Below are positions 868 through 50,720 of a stretch of 64,000 nucleotides of DNA, piece by piece. Source of the stretch: a virus; the IMG/VR virus record IMGVR_UViG_3300011008_000186, one strand, 5' to 3'. Made by a program: the position numbers and the translations under genes. Each line of letters begins with the position of its first letter. The first letter of the stretch is position 1. Under the pieces are notes generated by a model. It worked only from the letters and a program-made list of their open reading frames with translations. It was not told the origin of the DNA and did not search any database.

Positions 868-3711
868 TTACGACTCTTTCAAATATTTTCTGATGGTAGA
901 TTCAGAACGTCCCATAACCTCAGCTATTTCTGATACGGTGTAGCCAGATGCATTGAAGCTGCGGATTCTGTTTACTTCTGAATTACTAAGCGTTAATGTT
1001 TGACGAGGAGTTGCAAGCTGCCTGATTAAAGTCGAGTCAGTGTATTTTAGAATTTGCTGGAGCTTATTCTCACTTATAGCCCCATTCCGAATGGCTTCCC
1101 ACTCCTTGTCGGTTATGTCTATAGACGTACGATGCGCACCAACTTTAGATCGGGCCTTATTTAGTTCCACGGTCCTCAATTTAGATTCCTCCTTAGATGA
1201 TAGTTCCAGGGAGGCGGTCTTTTCTTTTACAGCGGAGGTGGCCATTCTTTGTGCCACCCTCTCTTTGGGGGCATTAGCCTGGGCATCCGCCAGCTTATTC
1301 ATAAGGGAGGTAACTTCATTCGAATATTGGGCCTTAGCCTCTTTATTCACCTTCAAATTGCCCGTATTTATCATTTCCAAACGGGCCTTATTCGCTAAGT
1401 CTTTCATAGCATTAGCATAGTCGGCGTATGCTTTTTCTTTTCTTGTACCGGACGATAATGTGTGTGCGTCATTGGTATCTTCCATACGAGTGGTTGTTGA
1501 AAAAGCAGGGCGAGTTATTGTTTTCTCATCCGTCACCTTTACCGTTTCGCCACTTGAATTCTTATAATAAACACCATCTTTTCTAGTTGAACCGGGGATT
1601 TCTTCTTTTGTTACCGGGTCTATTACATTTGTATATTCGCGCCCCGATTGTTTGTAATAAATCTCTCCAGTTTCCTTATTAATCTGTGGCGAACCCTGGC
1701 GTTCTGGAACTCGCACTTCACTTTTGGCTCCTGATATCAATGTAGATGCGCCAGTACTATAATGACCGGTATAAGGATCTATGTGGCCTTGATAAATATC
1801 TTTTAATTCCTTGATATTATTATCTTTTTCCGATTGAACGTAATCTAGTTTATGCTTTTCTGCATCTATAACAACCATTGAATGTCGAATCGCGGCAGCT
1901 AACTCATCTTCGCTCGCGCCTTTGAGAGTCATATCCGTGATCAAATTTGAAACCATACCCATTTGTTTCTGAGTATTATCTTTTGTCATTATCTTGACTT
2001 TTTTGCCGTCTTCGTTCGTATAGATTGTTTTTCCATTTTTATCAGTAGTTTCAATAGTACTATAAGCAGACTTGGGATCAAATCCAACAAGCCCCCTTAG
2101 AGTATTCTTTGATGATATTCGAACTTTGTCGTTTACTGGTATAACCAGGACCGTGTCACCATCGAAATCTGCTCCAGATAACCGATCAGCAACGTGCTTA
2201 TTTATTCCAACCGCATCCGTTGCTGTACCAATTACTGATTTTCCCTCTTTCTGGTTATTATTAACTGTAAGAATTGGGATCTCGGATATTGATCCATGAG
2301 GATATCTCACAAGTGCTACTTTTTCACCGTTATGGTAATTAGGGGCTGCTATTTCATCGTCTTTCAAACTAGTAACTGGTAATATAACTTGCCAATTCTG
2401 TCTAGGAAGAGCTGCGGCTCTCAAATGCACTGCTGCACTATCGCACTCACTGGCGAATGTCTGCAACATATTCTTTTTTACTGTAACATTTGTCAAATTA
2501 CAAATTTTATCAAACTCATCAGCGCTCTCGGCATATGACAAATTCAGCTGTCTTTTTATCAAACTTTCGGGCTGCTTTGATAAAAACTGTGCGGACAATG
2601 TATCTCTGTAATTATCCCAGTCACCTTCTTCTTTAACTTTATTAATAACGCGAAGATGTTTTTCACCATTCGAGTCAGTCCAATATGACTGACCGCCAGG
2701 ATCTTTTATTAAAGCGCCGAATGGGTTATCATTATCAATAGAACCATCAGCATTCGTCTTCATCGGCTTTAATACTTTAGTCATTGGTGTGCCAACATGT
2801 TTGTTGGTATTAAACAAAACGTCAACGCCATCAGGAAGATCGTCAGAATATACGGCCATTCCTTTCAGATAATGAGTTCCATCGACAGCAATTCGAACCT
2901 GAGCATAATTAGAATTTCCAAGCGAAATATCATCCACGCCTCGACGAAGTTCTATTACTCCATCCTTTTGATCGCCACCTTCTTCAGAATATCTTATTTT
3001 TAACCTTGAAGAATCAAGACTCTTTGGTGGCTGGAACGTTCTATACGTCGCCCCACCGTCATCTGAATGATAATCTGTAACCGACTTAATGTCACCAATA
3101 TGCTGATAAACATATCCTTCAGTATATGTCGGATCGGGCGGAGTAATTACTGTCGTTATAGTCTGCTGCCCTTTGTTTGTCAGCTGCCCGACGCCAATTG
3201 GATAGACATTGTACCCTTCGATGTTTAATATCAATAGTGCTTCTTTCATTGTATCGGAAGAAACACCGAGTTCGGCTTCCACACCCTTACCAACATCCAG
3301 CATGCCTTTTTCTTTAATTTGGGCAGCAAGGAGCTCTGCCGTTTTTTCACCTCTATTTGCATTGTATTCTCGCAATGGATTAAGAAGAGATCTAACCGTA
3401 GATTCATTAACACCCAATTCTCGTCCGATTTCGGTTGCTCCCATTCCTTCGGCCTGCATCTTTTTAGCTAAAGCCACATCTTCTCTACGAATAGCATTCT
3501 TTGCAAGACGCTTCATTGTAGCGAGCTGGGATACTGTCATCTTCTGCTCTTCTGCAAATTCTTTTTCGGTTTTTCCCTCAAGGATCGCCTGTTTGTACGC
3601 ATTCATAAATCCCTTCGGATCATGTTGAAAAGGATTTTCTCCACTTCCATAAGGATATCTTCCGGATCTGTACTTCATGCCATAGTGCATAATTACTCGT
3701 CTGTCGCCCAT
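868..3711 (-). CDS. putative single-subunit two-barrel RNA polymerase (YonO / RdRP-like) with terminal HTH domains
   Basis: 947 aa. The central segment KVALVRYPHGSISEIPILTV...VADRLSGADFDGDTVLVIPV matches the R-x-P ... ADFDGD metal-binding loop of double-psi beta-barrel RNAPs (beta-prime NADFDGD; QDE-1-type LSGGDYDGD). HTH-like segments lie at both ends (GATEIGRELGVNESTVRSLL and GYTVSEIAEVMGRSESTIRKYL). Motif-level call only. Confidence 0.55.
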   Translation of the reverse strand: MGDRRVIMHYGMKYRSGRYPYGSGENPFQHDPKGFMNAYKQAILEGKTEKEFAEEQKMTVSQLATMKRLAKNAIRREDVALAKKMQAEGMGATEIGRELGVNESTVRSLLNPLREYNANRGEKTAELLAAQIKEKGMLDVGKGVEAELGVSSDTMKEALLILNIEGYNVYPIGVGQLTNKGQQTITTVITPPDPTYTEGYVYQHIGDIKSVTDYHSDDGGATYRTFQPPKSLDSSRLKIRYSEEGGDQKDGVIELRRGVDDISLGNSNYAQVRIAVDGTHYLKGMAVYSDDLPDGVDVLFNTNKHVGTPMTKVLKPMKTNADGSIDNDNPFGALIKDPGGQSYWTDSNGEKHLRVINKVKEEGDWDNYRDTLSAQFLSKQPESLIKRQLNLSYAESADEFDKICNLTNVTVKKNMLQTFASECDSAAVHLRAAALPRQNWQVILPVTSLKDDEIAAPNYHNGEKVALVRYPHGSISEIPILTVNNNQKEGKSVIGTATDAVGINKHVADRLSGADFDGDTVLVIPVNDKVRISSKNTLRGLVGFDPKSAYSTIETTDKNGKTIYTNEDGKKVKIMTKDNTQKQMGMVSNLITDMTLKGASEDELAAAIRHSMVVIDAEKHKLDYVQSEKDNNIKELKDIYQGHIDPYTGHYSTGASTLISGAKSEVRVPERQGSPQINKETGEIYYKQSGREYTNVIDPVTKEEIPGSTRKDGVYYKNSSGETVKVTDEKTITRPAFSTTTRMEDTNDAHTLSSGTRKEKAYADYANAMKDLANKARLEMINTGNLKVNKEAKAQYSNEVTSLMNKLADAQANAPKERVAQRMATSAVKEKTASLELSSKEESKLRTVELNKARSKVGAHRTSIDITDKEWEAIRNGAISENKLQQILKYTDSTLIRQLATPRQTLTLSNSEVNRIRSFNASGYTVSEIAEVMGRSESTIRKYLKES

Positions 3712-7211: not shown

Positions 7212-7704
7212 TTTCTTCCTCCTTCACTTTATATCCAAAAGGAACCTCACCATTAATAATAGACTGCCAATGGGCGATCACATCCGGATGGGCATGTTCA
7301 CGATTTAATAAATTATCTTTTGCTTCTTTTTGTAATTGATCCCATGTGTATTTGGAAATTGTATTAGCAAAACGGCGGTCATATTGAGGATAAAGCATGT
7401 CGTCATAGTCAAGTATTTTTAATCCGGATTTATTTTGAGAGTACTGCCATTGTTTTATGAAATCCCACATAACGAAACTTGCTTGAAATCCAGAAATACC
7501 CGCAATCGAAGCTCCCATCGAACCTGCTCCTAATGCAATCGCAGCAACAGCATGCACAATAGTTCCGTAATCGTGGTTGTAATCATTTAATAAATGATCT
7601 GTAAACGTCTGCAGTTCTTCTTGTTTTTTTATTTTTTTCGCCTGTTTGAACCATGCGGCTTTAATATCAATAAATTCTTTGCTTTCTTCATCAAGTGTTA
7701 TCAT
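7195..7704 (-). CDS. hypothetical protein
   Basis: 169-aa ORF with AGGAGA upstream. Central Gly/Ala-rich hydrophobic segment. Confidence 0.6.
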   Translation of the reverse strand: MITLDEESKEFIDIKAAWFKQAKKIKKQEELQTFTDHLLNDYNHDYGTIVHAVAAIALGAGSMGASIAGISGFQASFVMWDFIKQWQYSQNKSGLKILDYDDMLYPQYDRRFANTISKYTWDQLQKEAKDNLLNREHAHPDVIAHWQSIINGEVPFGYKVKEEENEHTD

Positions 7705-7731
7705 TTTTATTGGATCTCCTTTCTTTTAATT

Positions 7732-7855
7732 AACCTCGGGTAAGGATTTGCACCTTACATGATGCGATGTTTTGCTCAGTTTGACTGGAATCATGTATGC
7801 ATCCATGTCGCATCTACCAGAATCCAATGCGTCTACCTATTCCGCCACCGAGGTT
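7732..7855 (-). ncRNA. tRNA-Leu-like element without a recognisable anticodon arm (copy 1)
   Basis: Minus strand reads AACCTCGG-TG-GCGGAATAGGTAGACGC ... GTAAGG-TGCAAAT-CCTTAC-CCGAGGTT. It has an 8-bp acceptor-like stem, a classic tRNA-Leu D-arm and a 6-bp T-like stem with the non-canonical loop TGCAAAT. The 70-nt central part contains the stem GATGCGA/TCGCATC. Paralogue at 38889..38975. Confidence 0.45.
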
Positions 7856-12741: not shown

Positions 12742-15700
12742 TTATTTGTTGATAAATTCATCTACATCACCATGGACACTTATTGCTTTTCTAGCTTCAA
12801 CTACTAAATAATCATAATAATCTCTTGCTATTGGTGTGTTTAGATTGTTTGCTACATCTGCTTCGAGCCATCTATACGTTTTCTTTATTTTTACAATCTT
12901 TCCGTTATGTTCCTCTTCAAGTTCAATGCTGGATCCGGCCACGGAATAATATTTGCCATCTTTACAACGATACAATAATCCGCCACCGCATCCATCTTTT
13001 ACTGGACAGAAACTACTAACGCGTCCTACAAACTGATAGTTATGACCTTTAGCAATTTGATTTGACAATTGATCGAGATCTTCTCTCAAAATATCATTGT
13101 CGTTTTTGTTAAGTTCTTTTAGTTTTTTGTCATACTCTTTTTCAAGCTCACTCACGTCGGGAAGGAACTCGTTCATGTCCAAATATAATGCTGAATCCCC
13201 AGTAACAGATTTAGTTTCGCACATATCGGAAAACTCGATCGGCTCTTTTGAGAACAATGTTTTAAATACATATGGAACTTGGAATTGAGTTCCGGTTGCA
13301 TCCCATTTACCGTCGTGATAGCAAATGTAAACAGCATTATTCGCAAGACACATTTTGTCATATGTAGCTTCGTGCTCGAAGTTGTATCCATAAAGCTTTC
13401 CATAATCCATAACAAATTGAATTATTTCTGGCGTGGCATTAGGAATCTTAATCGAGTCGGTTTTGATATGGGCTACTGTAAAGCCTCTTTTCTGAACCTG
13501 ATGCTTGAGATTTATCATAAACAAAGCACCACGCTTGGCTACGATGTTGTCTTTGTTTCTTGGATCTTTGAATGGATTCTCGAAACTTGCTGAAGTTAAA
13601 CCATAGACCGAATTAATTGCAATTTTCAAAGCCTGGGCCAACTGTTTTGCTTGATCAGGATCATCCAAATACTTGGCTAATTTACCATTAAATAGCTTCT
13701 TAGCCGATTCAAAGTCCTTATGCTTAATGAAAATTCTGGCATTAACTATATCCTGAAAATTCTGAGTATATTTTCCGAATAACCATTCTGCTATAGCTGA
13801 TGACGGATGCATAGATGCAATATCAAGAAGAGCTACATTATAGTAAATTCCAGGTTCTGCGTATACATATCCGCCTTCGCCAACTTCTTCGCCTCGATAG
13901 AGCGATTTAAATGCCCCTTTTTCGGTCTTTCCATTCTTAGACAATATCTTTACGTATTTGTACTCATAACCCGGAAATACGGGCTTCTCATCGCTTGTGA
14001 AGCATGTATACTCATCATCAAATAAGCAATGATCGGCACCTTCCGCCATGTTACGATAATTGAAACTTGATTGCGGATGCCTTTCGTTACCAAATATAAT
14101 CTTTTGAGTCAGTTTAAATACTGCTTCGGTTGCTAATACATCATTGCAGCAATAACTAGCAACTTCTTCCCATCTGCTTTCCGGAACCGGTTCGTCCCAA
14201 GGAATACCAAGTTCTTTATGAACAATAGGCTGATACGGTTTTGAAATATAAAGTTGAACCGTATCTATAGGGATGTCGAGTTTTTTCGAAATTTCTTCAT
14301 CACTTAGTCCGTCTTTATGGAACTTGTTAGCTTTGTCGTAATCGGACTGACATTTATTATTAAGCTCTATCTCCCATTTCTTAAGACTTTGCTTTTTACT
14401 ACAATAATCATAAATATCAGTGTACGACATGTCGTAAGCCGGACCATAAAATACAGACTTACTTTTATTTAGAATAATAGACTGTGATAATTCAAATAAT
14501 CCCTCAAGGGTTAAATGCTGAATACGACCATAAACAATATGATTATCGTATTTTCGACAGTTAAACCCTACCAGTTTCTTTTTAGAAAATTCCAAACATT
14601 CATCTGGTGTAGGATTGATCATAGTGATCACTGGCATATCAACGTCGTAGTATTTCCAACAGATTACAAAAAGATTTTTAAATGTTTCGACATCATAAAT
14701 TGTTACTGGCTCATTATCGTTTTCAACTTCGGCCACAGACCAATCAGTAATTTCTGAAACCTCTTCTTCGTGATCTTTGGACTTAAATTTAATAGTGTCA
14801 AGTAAGCCGAGACAATAATCTGCATGATGAGTGCTATTTGCTGCAAAATCCCAAATAAGTTCGTACATATCTGATAAATCGTATGAAATATCAGAATTGT
14901 AAGCATCTTGAAAAAGCTTTACGATGAAATCCATACTTGGTTTGGTACCAGGTTGGTATTCTTTGTGCATGGAATTAATTATCAATCGTCGTAAATGCTT
15001 TTCGTTTTGTATTTCCTTGCTGTTTACCACCTGGACCTCCTTTTTCAATGGTAAACCACTACTAATTGTTGCTATCGGCTGATCGTTGCATCGTGTGAGT
15101 TTTCGACGTAAAGCCCTCTTGCCTTCGCATATTTTTATCTCTATGTTTTCCGCATATATGTTATCCAGCTTCGACACGTCTCCTGTATAAATATAATGAA
15201 GATGTATTCCGGCATCGGACTTACTTGTTTCTGCATATGTTTTAGGCCAAGTGGATGCTGCTTTCTTATTTAGTTCAAAACTTTTATTTCCGTTTTCGTC
15301 TTTAAGATCAAAGTCAACAAAAATATGTGCCATCCCATTGATTTCCGGAGCTAAAATATAATGAAGCTTCGTAGTATCAAGATCTGATAATTTTGTTTTT
15401 ACTTTATCCCATGCCGTTCTTGGGCGATCACGTCCATCAGCTAATACCGTGGCATATTGTGCAGTACAGTCCTTTAAAATATCATCAAGAATGCTGTCTC
15501 TTAGTTTCAGATCAAGCCAATCGTTTGGGGAAGTTTTTTCTGAATTTTCACCCTGGGAATTTTCTTCAAAACTTTTATAGTTTTTCTTGAAAAGTCCGGT
15601 TTTAAATCCAGAATAGACTGATCTGGTACGAGCATTGTCGTTTGAACGAATATCAAATTTTTCGAAATAATTTTTCAATTCTTCTTTGAACGCTCTTTTA

Positions 15701-16896
15701 GAAAATGGATAAGGTACCTTAGCATCTTCGCAGTATTCTTTGTACATTTCGTAAGCTGTAGCCAATGAGATCGAATCTTCTTTTTTAAAAACGAAATACG
15801 AGTCAAGAACAAAATCGTAGAAATCATTTGATGCATCGATCATAGTTTCGGGAATATAATCATCATATGCACTGGGATCGGATTCATAAACCTGTTTACA
15901 ATGATATGCTATCCCTCCTAATTCGAAGTCAATGTCTTTTATCAAACGCCTGTATTCTTTTGGTGGGATTAATTTTCCGGTTGGACTTACGTCAATCAAA
16001 CGTCTGATGATGCCGGACTTTGCATCGGTAATCCTGACTGGTTTATTAGTTCCCATAAATAAAAAAGAATTAAATCGCATGTTATATAAACCTTTGAACT
16101 TTTCATTCACTGGCATTTCCTCATGTGATGTTAAAGAATTTAATTTGGTATTGTCTTCGATTCGTGATAGATCGCCGTCATGCTGTATGGCGACTAGTGG
16201 ATTGTCTTTCAATGACTCCAAAGCAAATGCGTTTCCTGCTTGTCCCAAAGCCTTTGCGTCGAACGTTCCGTAATATCCAGCGAATAGCTTTTGAATGATA
16301 TTAAGAACAGTTGACTTTCCTGTTCCACTTGCGCCATACAGCACTAAAAACTTTTGAATTTTCTTACTGGCACCATTTATTATAGCACCAATCGCCCATT
16401 CAATTTTCTTACGCTCTTTCTCGGAATATAATACGGACATCAGAGTATCGTATGCTGGCGTTTTACATTCTTCCAAAGCATATTCTACTCTCTTTGATGA
16501 GTAGTCGCTTTTCTCCGTTTTATCGTTTAAGAATATAATTTTTTCATCAAGAGGTTTCCAGTTTTCTCTTAAATCTTTCGTGCAGTATGTATGCCACGAG
16601 TTTATTATTCTTGTTGACGATGCCTTTATATGGAGAACTTTAACTCTGGGAACGTCTTCGTATTTGTTTTTTAACTCCTCCCGATACTTTTCGGCGTAAT
16701 TGTCCAGTTCTCTATCGATAATATCAAGCACATCTTGCTCGTCAGTGCTCCAACGATGTTCTTCCTCCAGCCAAATAGCATAGAAGTCTTTTCCTCGAAT
16801 CATTAAATCTTTCGACTTAATTATCTTAAATTCCGGATAGACTTCCACAACTCCTTTCTTCCCGGGACGGGTTAAAATTTGAAGGAAGTCGAACAC
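12742..16896 (-). CDS. fused SF3 (D5-like) helicase - AEP primase - family B DNA polymerase
   Basis: 1384 aa. Motifs: Walker A GASGTGKST; AEP-like HIFVDFD and SDAGIHLHY; PolB ExoI YDVETF, ExoII FNCRKYD, ExoIII YCCNDV; motif A LDIASMHPS; motif B KIAINSVYG; motif C HIKTDS. Confidence 0.85.
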   Translation of the reverse strand: MFDFLQILTRPGKKGVVEVYPEFKIIKSKDLMIRGKDFYAIWLEEEHRWSTDEQDVLDIIDRELDNYAEKYREELKNKYEDVPRVKVLHIKASSTRIINSWHTYCTKDLRENWKPLDEKIIFLNDKTEKSDYSSKRVEYALEECKTPAYDTLMSVLYSEKERKKIEWAIGAIINGASKKIQKFLVLYGASGTGKSTVLNIIQKLFAGYYGTFDAKALGQAGNAFALESLKDNPLVAIQHDGDLSRIEDNTKLNSLTSHEEMPVNEKFKGLYNMRFNSFLFMGTNKPVRITDAKSGIIRRLIDVSPTGKLIPPKEYRRLIKDIDFELGGIAYHCKQVYESDPSAYDDYIPETMIDASNDFYDFVLDSYFVFKKEDSISLATAYEMYKEYCEDAKVPYPFSKRAFKEELKNYFEKFDIRSNDNARTRSVYSGFKTGLFKKNYKSFEENSQGENSEKTSPNDWLDLKLRDSILDDILKDCTAQYATVLADGRDRPRTAWDKVKTKLSDLDTTKLHYILAPEINGMAHIFVDFDLKDENGNKSFELNKKAASTWPKTYAETSKSDAGIHLHYIYTGDVSKLDNIYAENIEIKICEGKRALRRKLTRCNDQPIATISSGLPLKKEVQVVNSKEIQNEKHLRRLIINSMHKEYQPGTKPSMDFIVKLFQDAYNSDISYDLSDMYELIWDFAANSTHHADYCLGLLDTIKFKSKDHEEEVSEITDWSVAEVENDNEPVTIYDVETFKNLFVICWKYYDVDMPVITMINPTPDECLEFSKKKLVGFNCRKYDNHIVYGRIQHLTLEGLFELSQSIILNKSKSVFYGPAYDMSYTDIYDYCSKKQSLKKWEIELNNKCQSDYDKANKFHKDGLSDEEISKKLDIPIDTVQLYISKPYQPIVHKELGIPWDEPVPESRWEEVASYCCNDVLATEAVFKLTQKIIFGNERHPQSSFNYRNMAEGADHCLFDDEYTCFTSDEKPVFPGYEYKYVKILSKNGKTEKGAFKSLYRGEEVGEGGYVYAEPGIYYNVALLDIASMHPSSAIAEWLFGKYTQNFQDIVNARIFIKHKDFESAKKLFNGKLAKYLDDPDQAKQLAQALKIAINSVYGLTSASFENPFKDPRNKDNIVAKRGALFMINLKHQVQKRGFTVAHIKTDSIKIPNATPEIIQFVMDYGKLYGYNFEHEATYDKMCLANNAVYICYHDGKWDATGTQFQVPYVFKTLFSKEPIEFSDMCETKSVTGDSALYLDMNEFLPDVSELEKEYDKKLKELNKNDNDILREDLDQLSNQIAKGHNYQFVGRVSSFCPVKDGCGGGLLYRCKDGKYYSVAGSSIELEEEHNGKIVKIKKTYRWLEADVANNLNTPIARDYYDYLVVEARKAISVHGDVDEFINK

Positions 16897-28605: not shown

Positions 28606-28637
28606 AAATATAATCTCCTTTCATTATTAAAATGAAA

Positions 28638-28709
28638 CAACGGCAGCAGGAATCGAACCTACATATACTGGGTCAAAGCCAGTCACACTCACCATTGTGC
28701 TATGCCGCT
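28638..28709 (-). tRNA. tRNA-Gln (anticodon UUG)
   Basis: Hand-folded cloverleaf. Acceptor AGCGGCA/TGCCGTT; D stem GCAC/GTGT; anticodon stem ACTGG/CCAGT with loop CTTTGAC; T arm GTAGG-TTCGATT-CCTGC; no encoded CCA. Confidence 0.8.
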
Positions 28710-28713
28710 AAAA

Positions 28714-38888: not shown

Positions 38889-38975
38889 TACATCAGATAA
38901 GGATTTGCACCTTATATGTTCGGTCTTTCCTGTACACCAACTTTCCATGCGTCTACCTATTCCGCCACAGATGTA
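38889..38975 (-). ncRNA. tRNA-Leu-like element without a recognisable anticodon arm (copy 2)
   Basis: Minus strand reads TACATCTG-TG-GCGGAATAGGTAGACGC-(33 nt)-ATAAGG-TGCAAAT-CCTTAT-CTGATGTA. The D-arm and T-loop are the same as in copy 1. The acceptor and sixth T-stem pairs differ in a compensatory way. It starts 8 nt after the endolysin stop codon. Confidence 0.45.
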
Positions 38976-50180: not shown

Positions 50181-50720
50181 CTAATTGGTTGTAAGAACCA
50201 GCGTTTCATCTTCCGTCAATGACAGATACGCACGGTTTTTATTATTCCAGAACTCTCGTTCAGTTTGCGTTATATGGATCGTACTATCATTAATGTGTTG
50301 CTTATAAAGCTTATCCGTAAACGGCAAGTCGACAACGTAAGCATTACCATTACCAATCTTAAATCCAGCCAGATCCAAATTACCAGATTGCTGATAATCG
50401 GTATAAATGTATACTGCGTTTCTCTCACTTACCAACGAAACCTGAGAATTCCAATTAGCCGTCGTGTCATAATATATAGCCACCGGACGTATGCCCAAAG
50501 CAACCAGCTTATCAGAAAGATCGGCTTCTGAAATCAATCCAAGTTGAGACCCGGTTTTGTTTCCGGACAATGTTACATTATTGATAGACGGTTTATTGAT
50601 CAAATCATTGTAATTACTTGTTCCGCCCGGAGAAGGAGAAGGTGTATCTCCACTCGGACTATCGGGTATTTCACCAATTTCGATGTCGGCATCGTTACCG
50701 CCGTAGCCAGGATCAATCAC
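50181..50720 (-). CDS. tail fibre / baseplate protein
   Basis: 179 aa. NYNDLINKPSINNVTLSGNKTGSQLGL is a common fibre N-terminal motif. Confidence 0.55.
   Translation of the reverse strand: MIDPGYGGNDADIEIGEIPDSPSGDTPSPSPGGTSNYNDLINKPSINNVTLSGNKTGSQLGLISEADLSDKLVALGIRPVAIYYDTTANWNSQVSLVSERNAVYIYTDYQQSGNLDLAGFKIGNGNAYVVDLPFTDKLYKQHINDSTIHITQTEREFWNNKNRAYLSLTEDETLVLTTN

Follow-up and report, generated by a model that had tools for sequence, protein, structure and literature searches.

tRNA-Leu-like elements without an anticodon arm form a conserved family in phages of Bacillota

Mimicry of tRNA is documented in plant RNA viruses, herpesviruses, transfer-messenger RNA (tmRNA), and Y RNAs, and it is the acceptor/T helix together with the D/T elbow that RNase P, RNase Z, and the CCA-adding enzyme recognize. 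tmRNA has an acceptor stem and a T-arm but no anticodon arm, carries a long insert between its halves, and is processed by RNase P. The MALAT1 mascRNA and the tRNA-like elements of murine gammaherpesvirus 68 are non-decoding, are embedded in longer transcripts, and are freed by RNase P and RNase Z, with the viral elements being linked to functional small-RNA cargo; YrlA, a bacterial Y RNA that is also present in some phages, joins a mimic of the D/T-type elbow to a Ro-binding module. To our knowledge, the only comparable RNAs of phage tRNA clusters are the species 1 and species 2 RNAs of phage T4, and we know of no explanation of their function despite the decades since their description. Here we describe a tRNA-Leu-like element without an anticodon arm that occurs twice on the minus strand of a 64,000-nucleotide (nt) viral sequence, IMG/VR record IMGVR_UViG_3300011008_000186 (the whole stretch is referred to here as the window), and that has many relatives in other phages. 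The element belongs among the non-decoding tRNA-derived RNAs and falls outside the tRNA, tmRNA, and yjdF families of Rfam.

The two window copies have in common an acceptor helix, a U8-G9 connector, a tRNA-Leu D-arm, an AU dinucleotide, and a T-arm with a 6-bp stem and a UGCAAAU loop (Table 1). The window contains exactly two occurrences of the 17-nt D-arm, against a shuffle expectation of 0.06, and this number was reached in none of 100 shuffles; a core-only covariance model, which splits the elements into halves at the variable centre, identified no third copy in the window. An earlier note made from the letters alone had parsed copy 1 into a stem, a TG, a D-arm, a linker, a hairpin, a T-arm, and an unpaired A, and all of these were confirmed on the minus strand, coordinates included. 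The unpaired A (7731) is directly 3' of the acceptor, past which the sequence runs on as AAUU, and CCA is not encoded. The acceptor of copy 2 (ACAUCUG/CUGAUGU) is unlike that of copy 1 in sequence yet pairs, with a single U.U mismatch at 6:67 and an additional U-1:A73 pair, and the sixth T-stem pair is A-U in copy 2 versus G-C in copy 1, in agreement with the compensatory changes that the note had ascribed to copy 2. The 8-bp acceptor stem that it proposed is present in both copies, although the helix conserved across the family is 7 bp, with the eighth pair (-1:73) formed in 71% of members.

The element is not a standard tRNA. It has the 7-bp acceptor stem, U8, a D-arm with G18 and G19, and the elbow partners C56 and U54/A58 of tRNAs, but not the canonical 12-bp acceptor/T stack (7 + 5) or the U54-U55-C56 T-loop; the T stem is always 6 bp, giving a stack of 13 bp, and the loop is mostly UGCAAAU, so that the G at position 55 and the long T stem singled out in copy 1 are typical of the whole family. 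An anticodon arm (5-bp stem and 7-nt loop, placed between D-arm and variable region) cannot be drawn in either copy, as had been noted for copy 1, and the annotation tools are silent at both. ARAGORN does not call the element in the window or in 60 loci examined, and Rfam 15 has no match to it at the gathering threshold (29 bits for tRNA). No standard anticodon arm is drawable, because the Rfam tRNA model reports nothing even at E ≤ 10 in a 401-nt local search. In 15 further loci this model left the elements unmatched while adjoining real tRNAs scored 34 to 75 bits.

Among the described systems, T4 rnaC (species 1 RNA; L246:1409-1547) is the nearest functional analogue and a precedent. It lies in the T4 tRNA cluster and is far more stable than its shuffles (z = -4.57), whereas rnaD (species 2 RNA) has no such folding signal (z = -0.83). 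In rnaC a canonical T-arm (CCGGG-UUCGAAU-CCCGG) is stacked on a 7-bp terminal stem that contains two U.U mismatches, and the centre is ∼100 nt; rnaC resembles the element in being phage encoded in line with tRNA genes, in stacking an acceptor-like stem on a T-arm, and in having a long structured centre and no anticodon arm. However, rnaC has a 5-bp T stem, a UUCGAAU loop, an imperfect acceptor, no tRNA-Leu D-arm, and a Gram-negative host, and it has no sequence similarity to the element family. tmRNA likewise combines an acceptor and a T-arm with a structured insert between its 5' and 3' halves and lacks an anticodon arm, but it has a stemless reduced D-loop, the alanine identity pair G3.U70, an encoded or added CCA, a tag frame, pseudoknots, and SmpB as its partner; ARAGORN and Rfam made no tmRNA call at any element examined, and a tag frame cannot fit in the element because centres can be as short as 23 to 33 nt and vary too much. 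The tRNA-Lys-derived yjdF riboswitch of Bacillota also keeps the D-loop/T-loop elbow just upstream of a ribosome-binding site, but its gene association is constant, it forms a ligand pocket, and its off state pairs the T-loop to the Shine-Dalgarno sequence, whereas the elements have variable neighbours, occupy sites in tRNA arrays, and have no Rfam yjdF match. The mascRNA and herpesvirus elements are not homologous; they are eukaryotic, depend on RNA polymerase III or nuclear processing, and carry cargo downstream of the tRNA-like unit. YrlA is similarly modular, with an elbow mimic joined to a second module, but its topology is reversed: it ends in the Ro-binding stem, its acceptor-like stem is loop-closed, and it is encoded next to rsr. 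No Rfam match to YrlA was recovered.

The family contains at least 143 distinct elements on 140 loci (IMG/VR, GenBank phages, and GTDB genomes), and its carriers among the matches listed are exclusively phages or prophages of Bacillota. An exact T-arm scan of IMG/VR recovered at least 120 loci, ∼90 of which have a D-arm 28 to 184 nt upstream and a complementary acceptor strand downstream (the T-arm-selected sample). A D-arm-anchored scan of IMG/VR, unbiased as to the T-arm, yielded, among the matches listed, ∼60 further elements (the D-arm-selected sample) and only ∼9 genuine tRNA-Leu genes; fractions over 143 refer throughout to the distinct elements on 140 loci among the matches listed in both scans.

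Covariation in both samples points to a selected RNA structure. In the T-arm-selected sample, each of the seven acceptor pairs is formed in 88 to 100% of members with four to six pair types apiece, and 96.5% of the helix cells in a 78-sequence core alignment are paired, versus 76% in shuffles. The covariation score of this core is 0.539, compared to 0.140 for shuffles and 0.06 to 0.13 with slid partners. Pair 3:70 is mostly U-A or A-U, the D-stem pair 11:24 changes from C-G to U-A in eight members, and the sixth T-stem pair is GC in 75, AU in 9, and GU in 6. The D-arm-selected sample has a score of 0.704 versus 0.156 in shuffles, and its T stem is always 6 bp, with five of the six pairs changing on both sides (U-A/C-G, A-U/G-C/U-A/C-G, etc.). 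Because extraction of this second sample demanded a fully paired hairpin beside a complementary acceptor strand, the percentage paired in it is partly by construction, but the variety of pair types is unaffected. In the acceptor stems of the T-arm-selected sample there are ∼30 G.U pairs and 2 A.C pairs; the fold is therefore in RNA made from the window minus strand, and a DNA-level signal is excluded.

Outside the helices, the conserved positions are those of a tRNA core. U8-G9 (TG) is present in 91 of 92 members of the T-arm-selected sample, and the family D-arm has a 3-bp stem and the loop AAUAGGUAGA. A U directly precedes the T stem in 143/143 elements, and the dinucleotide is AU in 130/143; this U is likely the equivalent of U48 and the Levitt partner of A15, by analogy with tRNA-Leu. 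The T-loop is UGCAAAU in most members, with UGCGAAU, UGUAAAU, and UUCAAAU as rare variants. CCA is encoded in only 2 of 143 elements, and U occupies position 74 in 51%. At position 73, A is found in 50% (71/143) and U in 34% (U73 in copy 1 and A73 in copy 2), with the true 3' end placed only from sequence. The element thus appears to keep the set of features that underlies the L shape: a 7-bp acceptor, U8, A14, A15 with the U before the T stem, and G18 and G19 opposite a U-G-N-R-A-type T-loop.

The source of this core is evident in the genuine tRNA-Leu(UAA) genes of the same phages, which carry an identical U8-G9/D-arm (UGGCGGAAUAGGUAGACGC); the D-arm of copy 1 matches that of the tRNA-Leu(UAA) at L059. 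The two kinds of gene also share the order of the arms, a homologous GAUG..CAUC variable-arm helix, and location in the same arrays. The variable arm of the phage tRNA-Leu(UAA) reads CGAUG..CAUCG and is separated from the T stem by one or two bases, and in 75% of the elements a helix of at least 5 bp ends exactly 2 nt before the T stem, versus 24 to 40% at control offsets. This closing helix usually has G first and is commonly GAU..AUC, with its 5' strand most often beginning 10 to 12 nt past the D stem. The central hairpin is read as an enlarged variable arm because of this placement and the GAUG..CAUC match. The tRNA-Leu(UAA) genes have, in addition, anticodon and T stems of 5 bp each, with the loops CUUAAAA and UUCRANU, respectively, as well as G1-C72, A73, and often an encoded CCA, whereas none of these features is conserved in the element family. 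These sequence relationships establish descent of the element from a phage tRNA-Leu(UAA), and with the anticodon arm the ability to decode has been lost.

In our reading, the short linker between the D-arm and the central hairpin is a remnant of the 18-nt anticodon arm, now reduced to ∼10 nt or a mini-hairpin. Linkers of 8 to 14 nt have a mean of 1.71 nested end pairs, versus 0.61 when shuffled, and 38% have at least three. The copy 1 linker may form a weak 5-bp mini-hairpin, AUUGG/CUGGU, with three of five pairs being G.U and a 3-nt loop. Near-identical copies of copy 1 were found through the flanking protein in two public assemblies, and the three versions differ only at one linker base, where G is replaced by C (CUGG to CUGC; L245 ∼772, JGI 3300011002, corresponding to window 7817); the change would weaken the mini-hairpin and an alternative CUGG/CCAG pseudoknot alike and, as a single case, is uninformative.

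Centres range from 23 to 199 nt across the family, and we read them as an expanded variable arm that has become a structured, lineage-specific domain 20 to about 190 nt long. They fold more stably than shuffles (mean z-score of -0.81 for 139 centres). The same class of centre occurs on differing acceptor and T stems (L045/L089 versus L161/L191/L232), with apparent compensatory changes, judged by eye, in its inner hairpin, and one acceptor sequence is found with centres of several lengths. Rfam at the gathering threshold on 15 loci with long centres matched real tRNAs and one drum RNA nearby, and nothing else; a k-mer search of the window for antisense targets of both its centres was swamped by self-matches and gave nothing usable. 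A T-arm-like motif with U55 (G-K-UCRAN-UC) is present within the centres of eight elements (L047, L143, L155, L162, L207, L216, L228, and L234) and in several is a hairpin by eye, for example ACGG-UUCGAUU-CCGU in L228; such an element would own two T-loops and one D-loop. Three short motifs are enriched in the centres, which otherwise show no relationship to one another: GTGTAC in 10 of 84 versus 1.4 expected (including copy 2, at 38932-38937), GTTGGT in 8 of 84 versus 1.2, and GGTTG in 16 of 84 versus 5.6. GUGUAC and GGUUG led to no target or known fold.

Table 1. Coordinates of the two element copies in the window and of their parts.
Feature	Coordinates	Strand	Details
Copy 1, entire element	7732-7855	minus	124 nt; positions -1 to 73 in tRNA numbering
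Copy 1, acceptor helix	7855-7848 / 7739-7732	minus	AACCTCGG / CCGAGGTT; from 5' end to 3' end, AACCUCGG / CCGAGGUU
Copy 1, acceptor 5' strand	7848-7855	minus	positions 1-7, ACCTCGG, at 7854-7848; additional A at 7855, paired with U73
Copy 1, acceptor 3' strand	7732-7739	minus	positions 66-72 at 7739-7733; U73 at 7732
Copy 1, U8-G9 connector	7846-7847	minus	TG
Copy 1, D-arm of tRNA-Leu type	7829-7845	minus	GCGGAATAGGTAGACGC (GCGGAAUAGGUAGACGC); 3-bp stem GCG/CGC; loop with A14, A15, G18, G19, A20a
Copy 1, linker at anticodon-arm position	7815-7828	minus	14 nt; AUUGGAUUCUGGUA
Copy 1, enlarged variable-arm-like domain	7761-7814	minus	closing helix GAUGCGA (7814-7808) / UCGCAUC (7767-7761), by folding
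Copy 1, A-U dinucleotide 5' of T stem	7759-7760	minus	AT at 7760-7759
Copy 1, T-arm	7740-7758	minus	GUAAGG-UGCAAAU-CCUUAC; 6-bp stem; G at position 55
Copy 2, entire element	38889-38975	minus	87 nt
Copy 2, D-arm	38949-38965	minus	same sequence as copy 1 D-arm
Copy 2, centre	38916-38948	minus	33 nt; linker AUGGAAAG; short hairpin UUGGU...ACCGA, loop GUACAGGAAAG; then ACAU
Copy 2, T-arm	38897-38915	minus	AUAAGG-UGCAAAU-CCUUAU

Both window copies lie between same-strand genes, starting 5 to 7 nt past the upstream stop codon and ending 27 to 29 nt ahead of the next start codon, each of which has a strong AAAGGAGA ribosome-binding site. No promoter-like or terminator-like site was found adjoining either copy, and the element appears to lack a promoter and terminator of its own and is likely transcribed within phage operons or tRNA arrays. 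About half of the members are within ∼40 nt of a downstream same-strand open reading frame (ORF). Upstream genes in the family are mostly replication or regulatory genes, and downstream genes are enriched in HNH endonuclease, terminase subunit, and head genes, an arrangement that marks the early/late boundary, a region that tends to collect accessory genes and tRNAs. At about a dozen of 60 loci (about a fifth) the element is within ∼200 nt of genuine same-strand tRNA genes, and at five (L033, L047, L049, L050, and L032) a real same-strand tRNA is only 3 to 9 nt away; most elements, including both window copies, are not adjacent to a tRNA. The sole standard tRNA in the window is a tRNA-Gln(UUG) at 28637-28710 on the minus strand (64.9 bits; ARAGORN and Rfam), which is also the commonest companion tRNA in loci of the element family.

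We give an even chance to the reading in which the element is a non-decoding tRNA-Leu derivative, excised by host RNase P and RNase Z to yield a stable L-shaped RNA with a variable-arm payload. RNase P would cleave at the 5' side and RNase Z at the 3' side, with the 3' cut assigned to RNase Z because CCA is unencoded and position 74 is mostly U; Bacillus RNase Z substrates likewise lack an encoded CCA. Cleavage would free a stable tRNA-shaped RNA incapable of decoding and, as a side effect, would part the flanking cistrons. Such an RNA would be barred from translation by its 13-bp stack, by G55, by the A/U-rich first pair, and by the lack of an anticodon arm, and the enlarged variable arm would be the payload, acting in trans on a host or phage partner from a natural tRNA scaffold. 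Processing by RNase P and RNase Z, which the earlier note had listed among possible functions, is plausible from the anatomy of the element and its occurrence in tRNA arrays.

Several observations weigh against this reading. The 13-bp stack and the A/U-rich 1:72 pair depart from standard RNase P and RNase Z substrates, and the cleavage sites and efficiency are uncertain for that reason. No target or partner protein was found, nor is there a constant neighbour or partner gene among the family loci, so that the argument for a payload comes down to structural conservation. The diversity of the centres makes a single common trans function hard to picture, and part of it could be neutral; moreover, the spot of the window copies 27 to 29 nt before a start codon suits a role in cis equally well.

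A role in cis would consist either of cistron punctuation by RNase P and RNase Z cuts, which would also determine the stability of the cistrons, or of an uncleaved tRNA-shaped leader that enhances translation of the gene that follows, with a freed RNA that does nothing by itself and a largely drifting centre, and we consider it possible but doubtful. It accords with the tight fit of the window copies between genes with strong ribosome-binding sites, with the nearness of a downstream ORF in about half of the members, and with the frequent location at the early/late boundary ahead of HNH endonuclease and terminase genes, and there is a precedent in that tRNAs grafted upstream of a Shine-Dalgarno sequence increase translation 2- to 6.3-fold in vitro, dependent on the elbow G-G (PMC9142559). 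However, the downstream genes are heterogeneous, in five other phages the homologue of the gene that lies downstream in the window is not preceded by an element, and within tRNA arrays the element is followed by a tRNA gene and not by an ORF. An ordinary tRNA would also suffice for such a role, which leaves the 6-bp T stem, G55, the lost anticodon arm, and the maintained centre unexplained. It is quite unlikely that the element acts through its tRNA core as a decoy or substrate for a tRNA-binding host factor (leucyl-tRNA synthetase [LeuRS], CCA-adding enzyme, RNase P, or a defence toxin directed at the acceptor end or elbow of tRNAs), with the centre being secondary. Most of the Escherichia coli LeuRS elements are kept (A14, A15 with the U48 equivalent, G18 and G19, A20a, U54:A58, and G19-C56), the loss of the anticodon and variable arms is tolerated by LeuRS (PMC9976931), and elements lie in accessory-gene hot spots, for example beside HicAB in Paenibacillus phage Pd_22F. 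Nonetheless, A73 and U55 both matter for leucine identity (PMC9976931), and neither is conserved: the discriminator A73, crucial for leucylation, is present in only half of the elements and is U73 in copy 1, and in most members G55 stands in for the U of G18:U55. A LeuRS decoy, one of the functions put forward earlier, is therefore less likely family-wide, and nothing supports the primer role proposed alongside it. CCA is unencoded, no defence system aimed at the tRNA elbow or tRNA-Leu was identified in this analysis, and a pure decoy leaves the selected centre structure unexplained.

Three further explanations were rejected. A decaying, functionless tRNA-Leu pseudogene would account for the clear descent and the lost anticodon arm, but it is very improbable and is ruled out by the covariation: the non-canonical architecture is shared by the at least 143 distinct copies in phages of many genera, 96 to 99% of helix cells are in standard pairs with many compensatory changes, and the 6-bp T stem and the U before it are invariant; junk is not retained so consistently in compact phage genomes. 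The shared architecture, stem covariation, strand-specific G.U pairs, and kept central helix bear out the earlier note in its preference for a functional non-decoding mimic over a pseudogene. A decoding tRNA-Leu with a spliced intron is hardly credible either. The insert is roughly at the place of the anticodon arm, and cyanobacterial and plastid tRNA-Leu(UAA) genes, which carry a group I intron, are a precedent; however, the flanks form no anticodon stem, the smallest centres (23 to 33 nt, copy 2 included) are too short for an anticodon arm and a variable arm, most centres (23 to 199 nt) are far below group I/II size with no match to an Rfam intron family, and the real tRNA-Leu genes of these phages have a different T stem and T-loop. 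The earlier note had said that the prediction of an intron-bearing standard tRNA by covariance models would overturn its interpretation, and ARAGORN and Rfam predict none. Finally, temperate phages often integrate into tRNA genes, and some elements are near genome ends or terminase genes, but a DNA-level site (a tRNA-derived att, packaging, or replication signal) is practically excluded by the strand-asymmetric covariation, with the ratio of G.U to A.C (∼30 to 2) fitting folding of RNA from one strand. The acceptor varies freely with its pairing kept, the opposite of an att core matching a host gene, and the two copies per genome are at unrelated positions.

If the excised, payload-bearing RNA is taken one step further, these may be widespread tRNA-scaffolded effector RNAs of Bacillota phages, a tentative and rather improbable proposal in which the core would recruit host tRNA processing and confer stability and the hypervariable arm, as a rapidly evolving effector, would bind or sequester factors of the host or of rival phages. 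Such an RNA could be, for example, an anti-defence or takeover module, with a variable arm sometimes tipped with extra T-loops, and would provide a functional model for the T4 species 1 and 2 RNAs as well. The element is in any case a natural tRNA scaffold that carries a variable RNA domain; the family opens an experimental route to the role of non-decoding tRNA-shaped RNAs during infection, and its unusual 7/6 stem arrangement is a naturally occurring test of substrate measurement by RNase P, RNase Z, and the CCA-adding enzyme.

The hosts are diverse within Bacillota. Distant BLAST matches of copy 1 in GenBank phages come in two pieces, on the D-arm side and the T-arm side, and are in phages of Leuconostoc, Listeria, Lactobacillus, Weissella, Paenibacillus, Enterococcus, and a Tenericutes bacterium; copy 2 adds Bacillus phage phi3T, Brochothrix, and others. 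Among the species-representative genomes of GTDB, the pattern occurs only in Weissella, Lachnospiraceae, other Clostridia, and Bacilli. The family is abundant, and its phages infect hosts of medical and industrial importance (Listeria, Enterococcus, lactobacilli, Leuconostoc, and gut Clostridia); phi3T, a phage of B. subtilis, is a genetically tractable carrier with a complete element (L238:1994-2128; about 50193-50327 of KY030782, minus strand) immediately past yonN, an HU-like gene. The T-arm of this element is overlapped by an annotated hypothetical ORF, phi3T_57, and annotated ORFs also cover the matches in phage B054 of Listeria (gp75) and phage LP65 of Lactobacillus (orf80); these ORFs are probably mis-annotations. 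At L054 (∼7600-7812) there is a tandem pair, the first with a variant T-arm (GAGGTGCAAATCCTAAC) and the second a complete element ∼20 nt further on.

Neither Rfam 15 nor the searchable literature (full text, conserved sequences included) yielded a description of the family, which is not proof of absence, and a catalogue of ∼10,000 viral RNA candidates names tRNA-like candidates in general terms only (PMC10690425). The family is apparently unannotated to date. Standard pipelines miss it, as tRNA finders reject the element, Rfam 15 has no model, and several GenBank records overlay hypothetical ORFs, and its recognition would correct phage annotations. Exact centre-specific patterns identified no orthologues of copy 1 or copy 2 in IMG/VR, and an exact pattern of the copy 1 acceptor, D-arm, and T-arm with the centre left free had no match in JGI metagenomes. 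Megablast of the flanks of both window loci against GenBank phages gave no match, so the window phage has no close sequenced relative at these loci among those phages.

Several other unusual RNA genes are present in the element-bearing loci. L060 (IMG/VR 3300021255_002052) has odd tRNA-like genes on either side of the element (L060:1106-1219 and L060:524-607; ∼41 bits, Rfam tRNA), in which the anticodon stems enclose 48 nt and 22 nt and not a 7-nt loop, and insert-bearing tRNA scaffolds may be more widespread in these phages. A miniature tmRNA-like gene of 105 nt (L117:9136-9240), which combines an acceptor stem and a canonical T-arm with an encoded ACCA, is ∼460 nt downstream of the element at that locus; it scores 21 bits (E = 2e-6) with Rfam tmRNA and has 44 nt in place of ∼300. 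A drum RNA (L047:2574-2692; RF02958, 46 bits) is in the same tRNA array as the L047 element, ∼200 nt upstream of it. ARAGORN also calls tRNAs with anticodon CUA, labelled tRNA-Pyl, in the large element-bearing arrays of L033 (1716-1801) and L047 (542-616); these may be amber suppressors, hinting at stop-codon recoding in these phages.

The window is a temperate siphophage of the gut Clostridia type. It encodes an integrase, a tape measure protein, and holins, and its helicase shares 62% identity with the helicase of Faecalibacterium phage FP_oengus. No tRNA-processing enzyme is among the matches listed in PHROG scans of most of the larger window ORFs. Among these are ORFs 868-3711 and 12742-16896 (minus); one large ORF of the scanned batch, not specified further, matches an RNA-dependent RNA polymerase PHROG (E = 0), and by Pfam a sigma-70 region 4 helix-turn-helix lies at the end of the 947-amino-acid (aa) ORF, while DUF5906 is the only match in the 1384-aa ORF.

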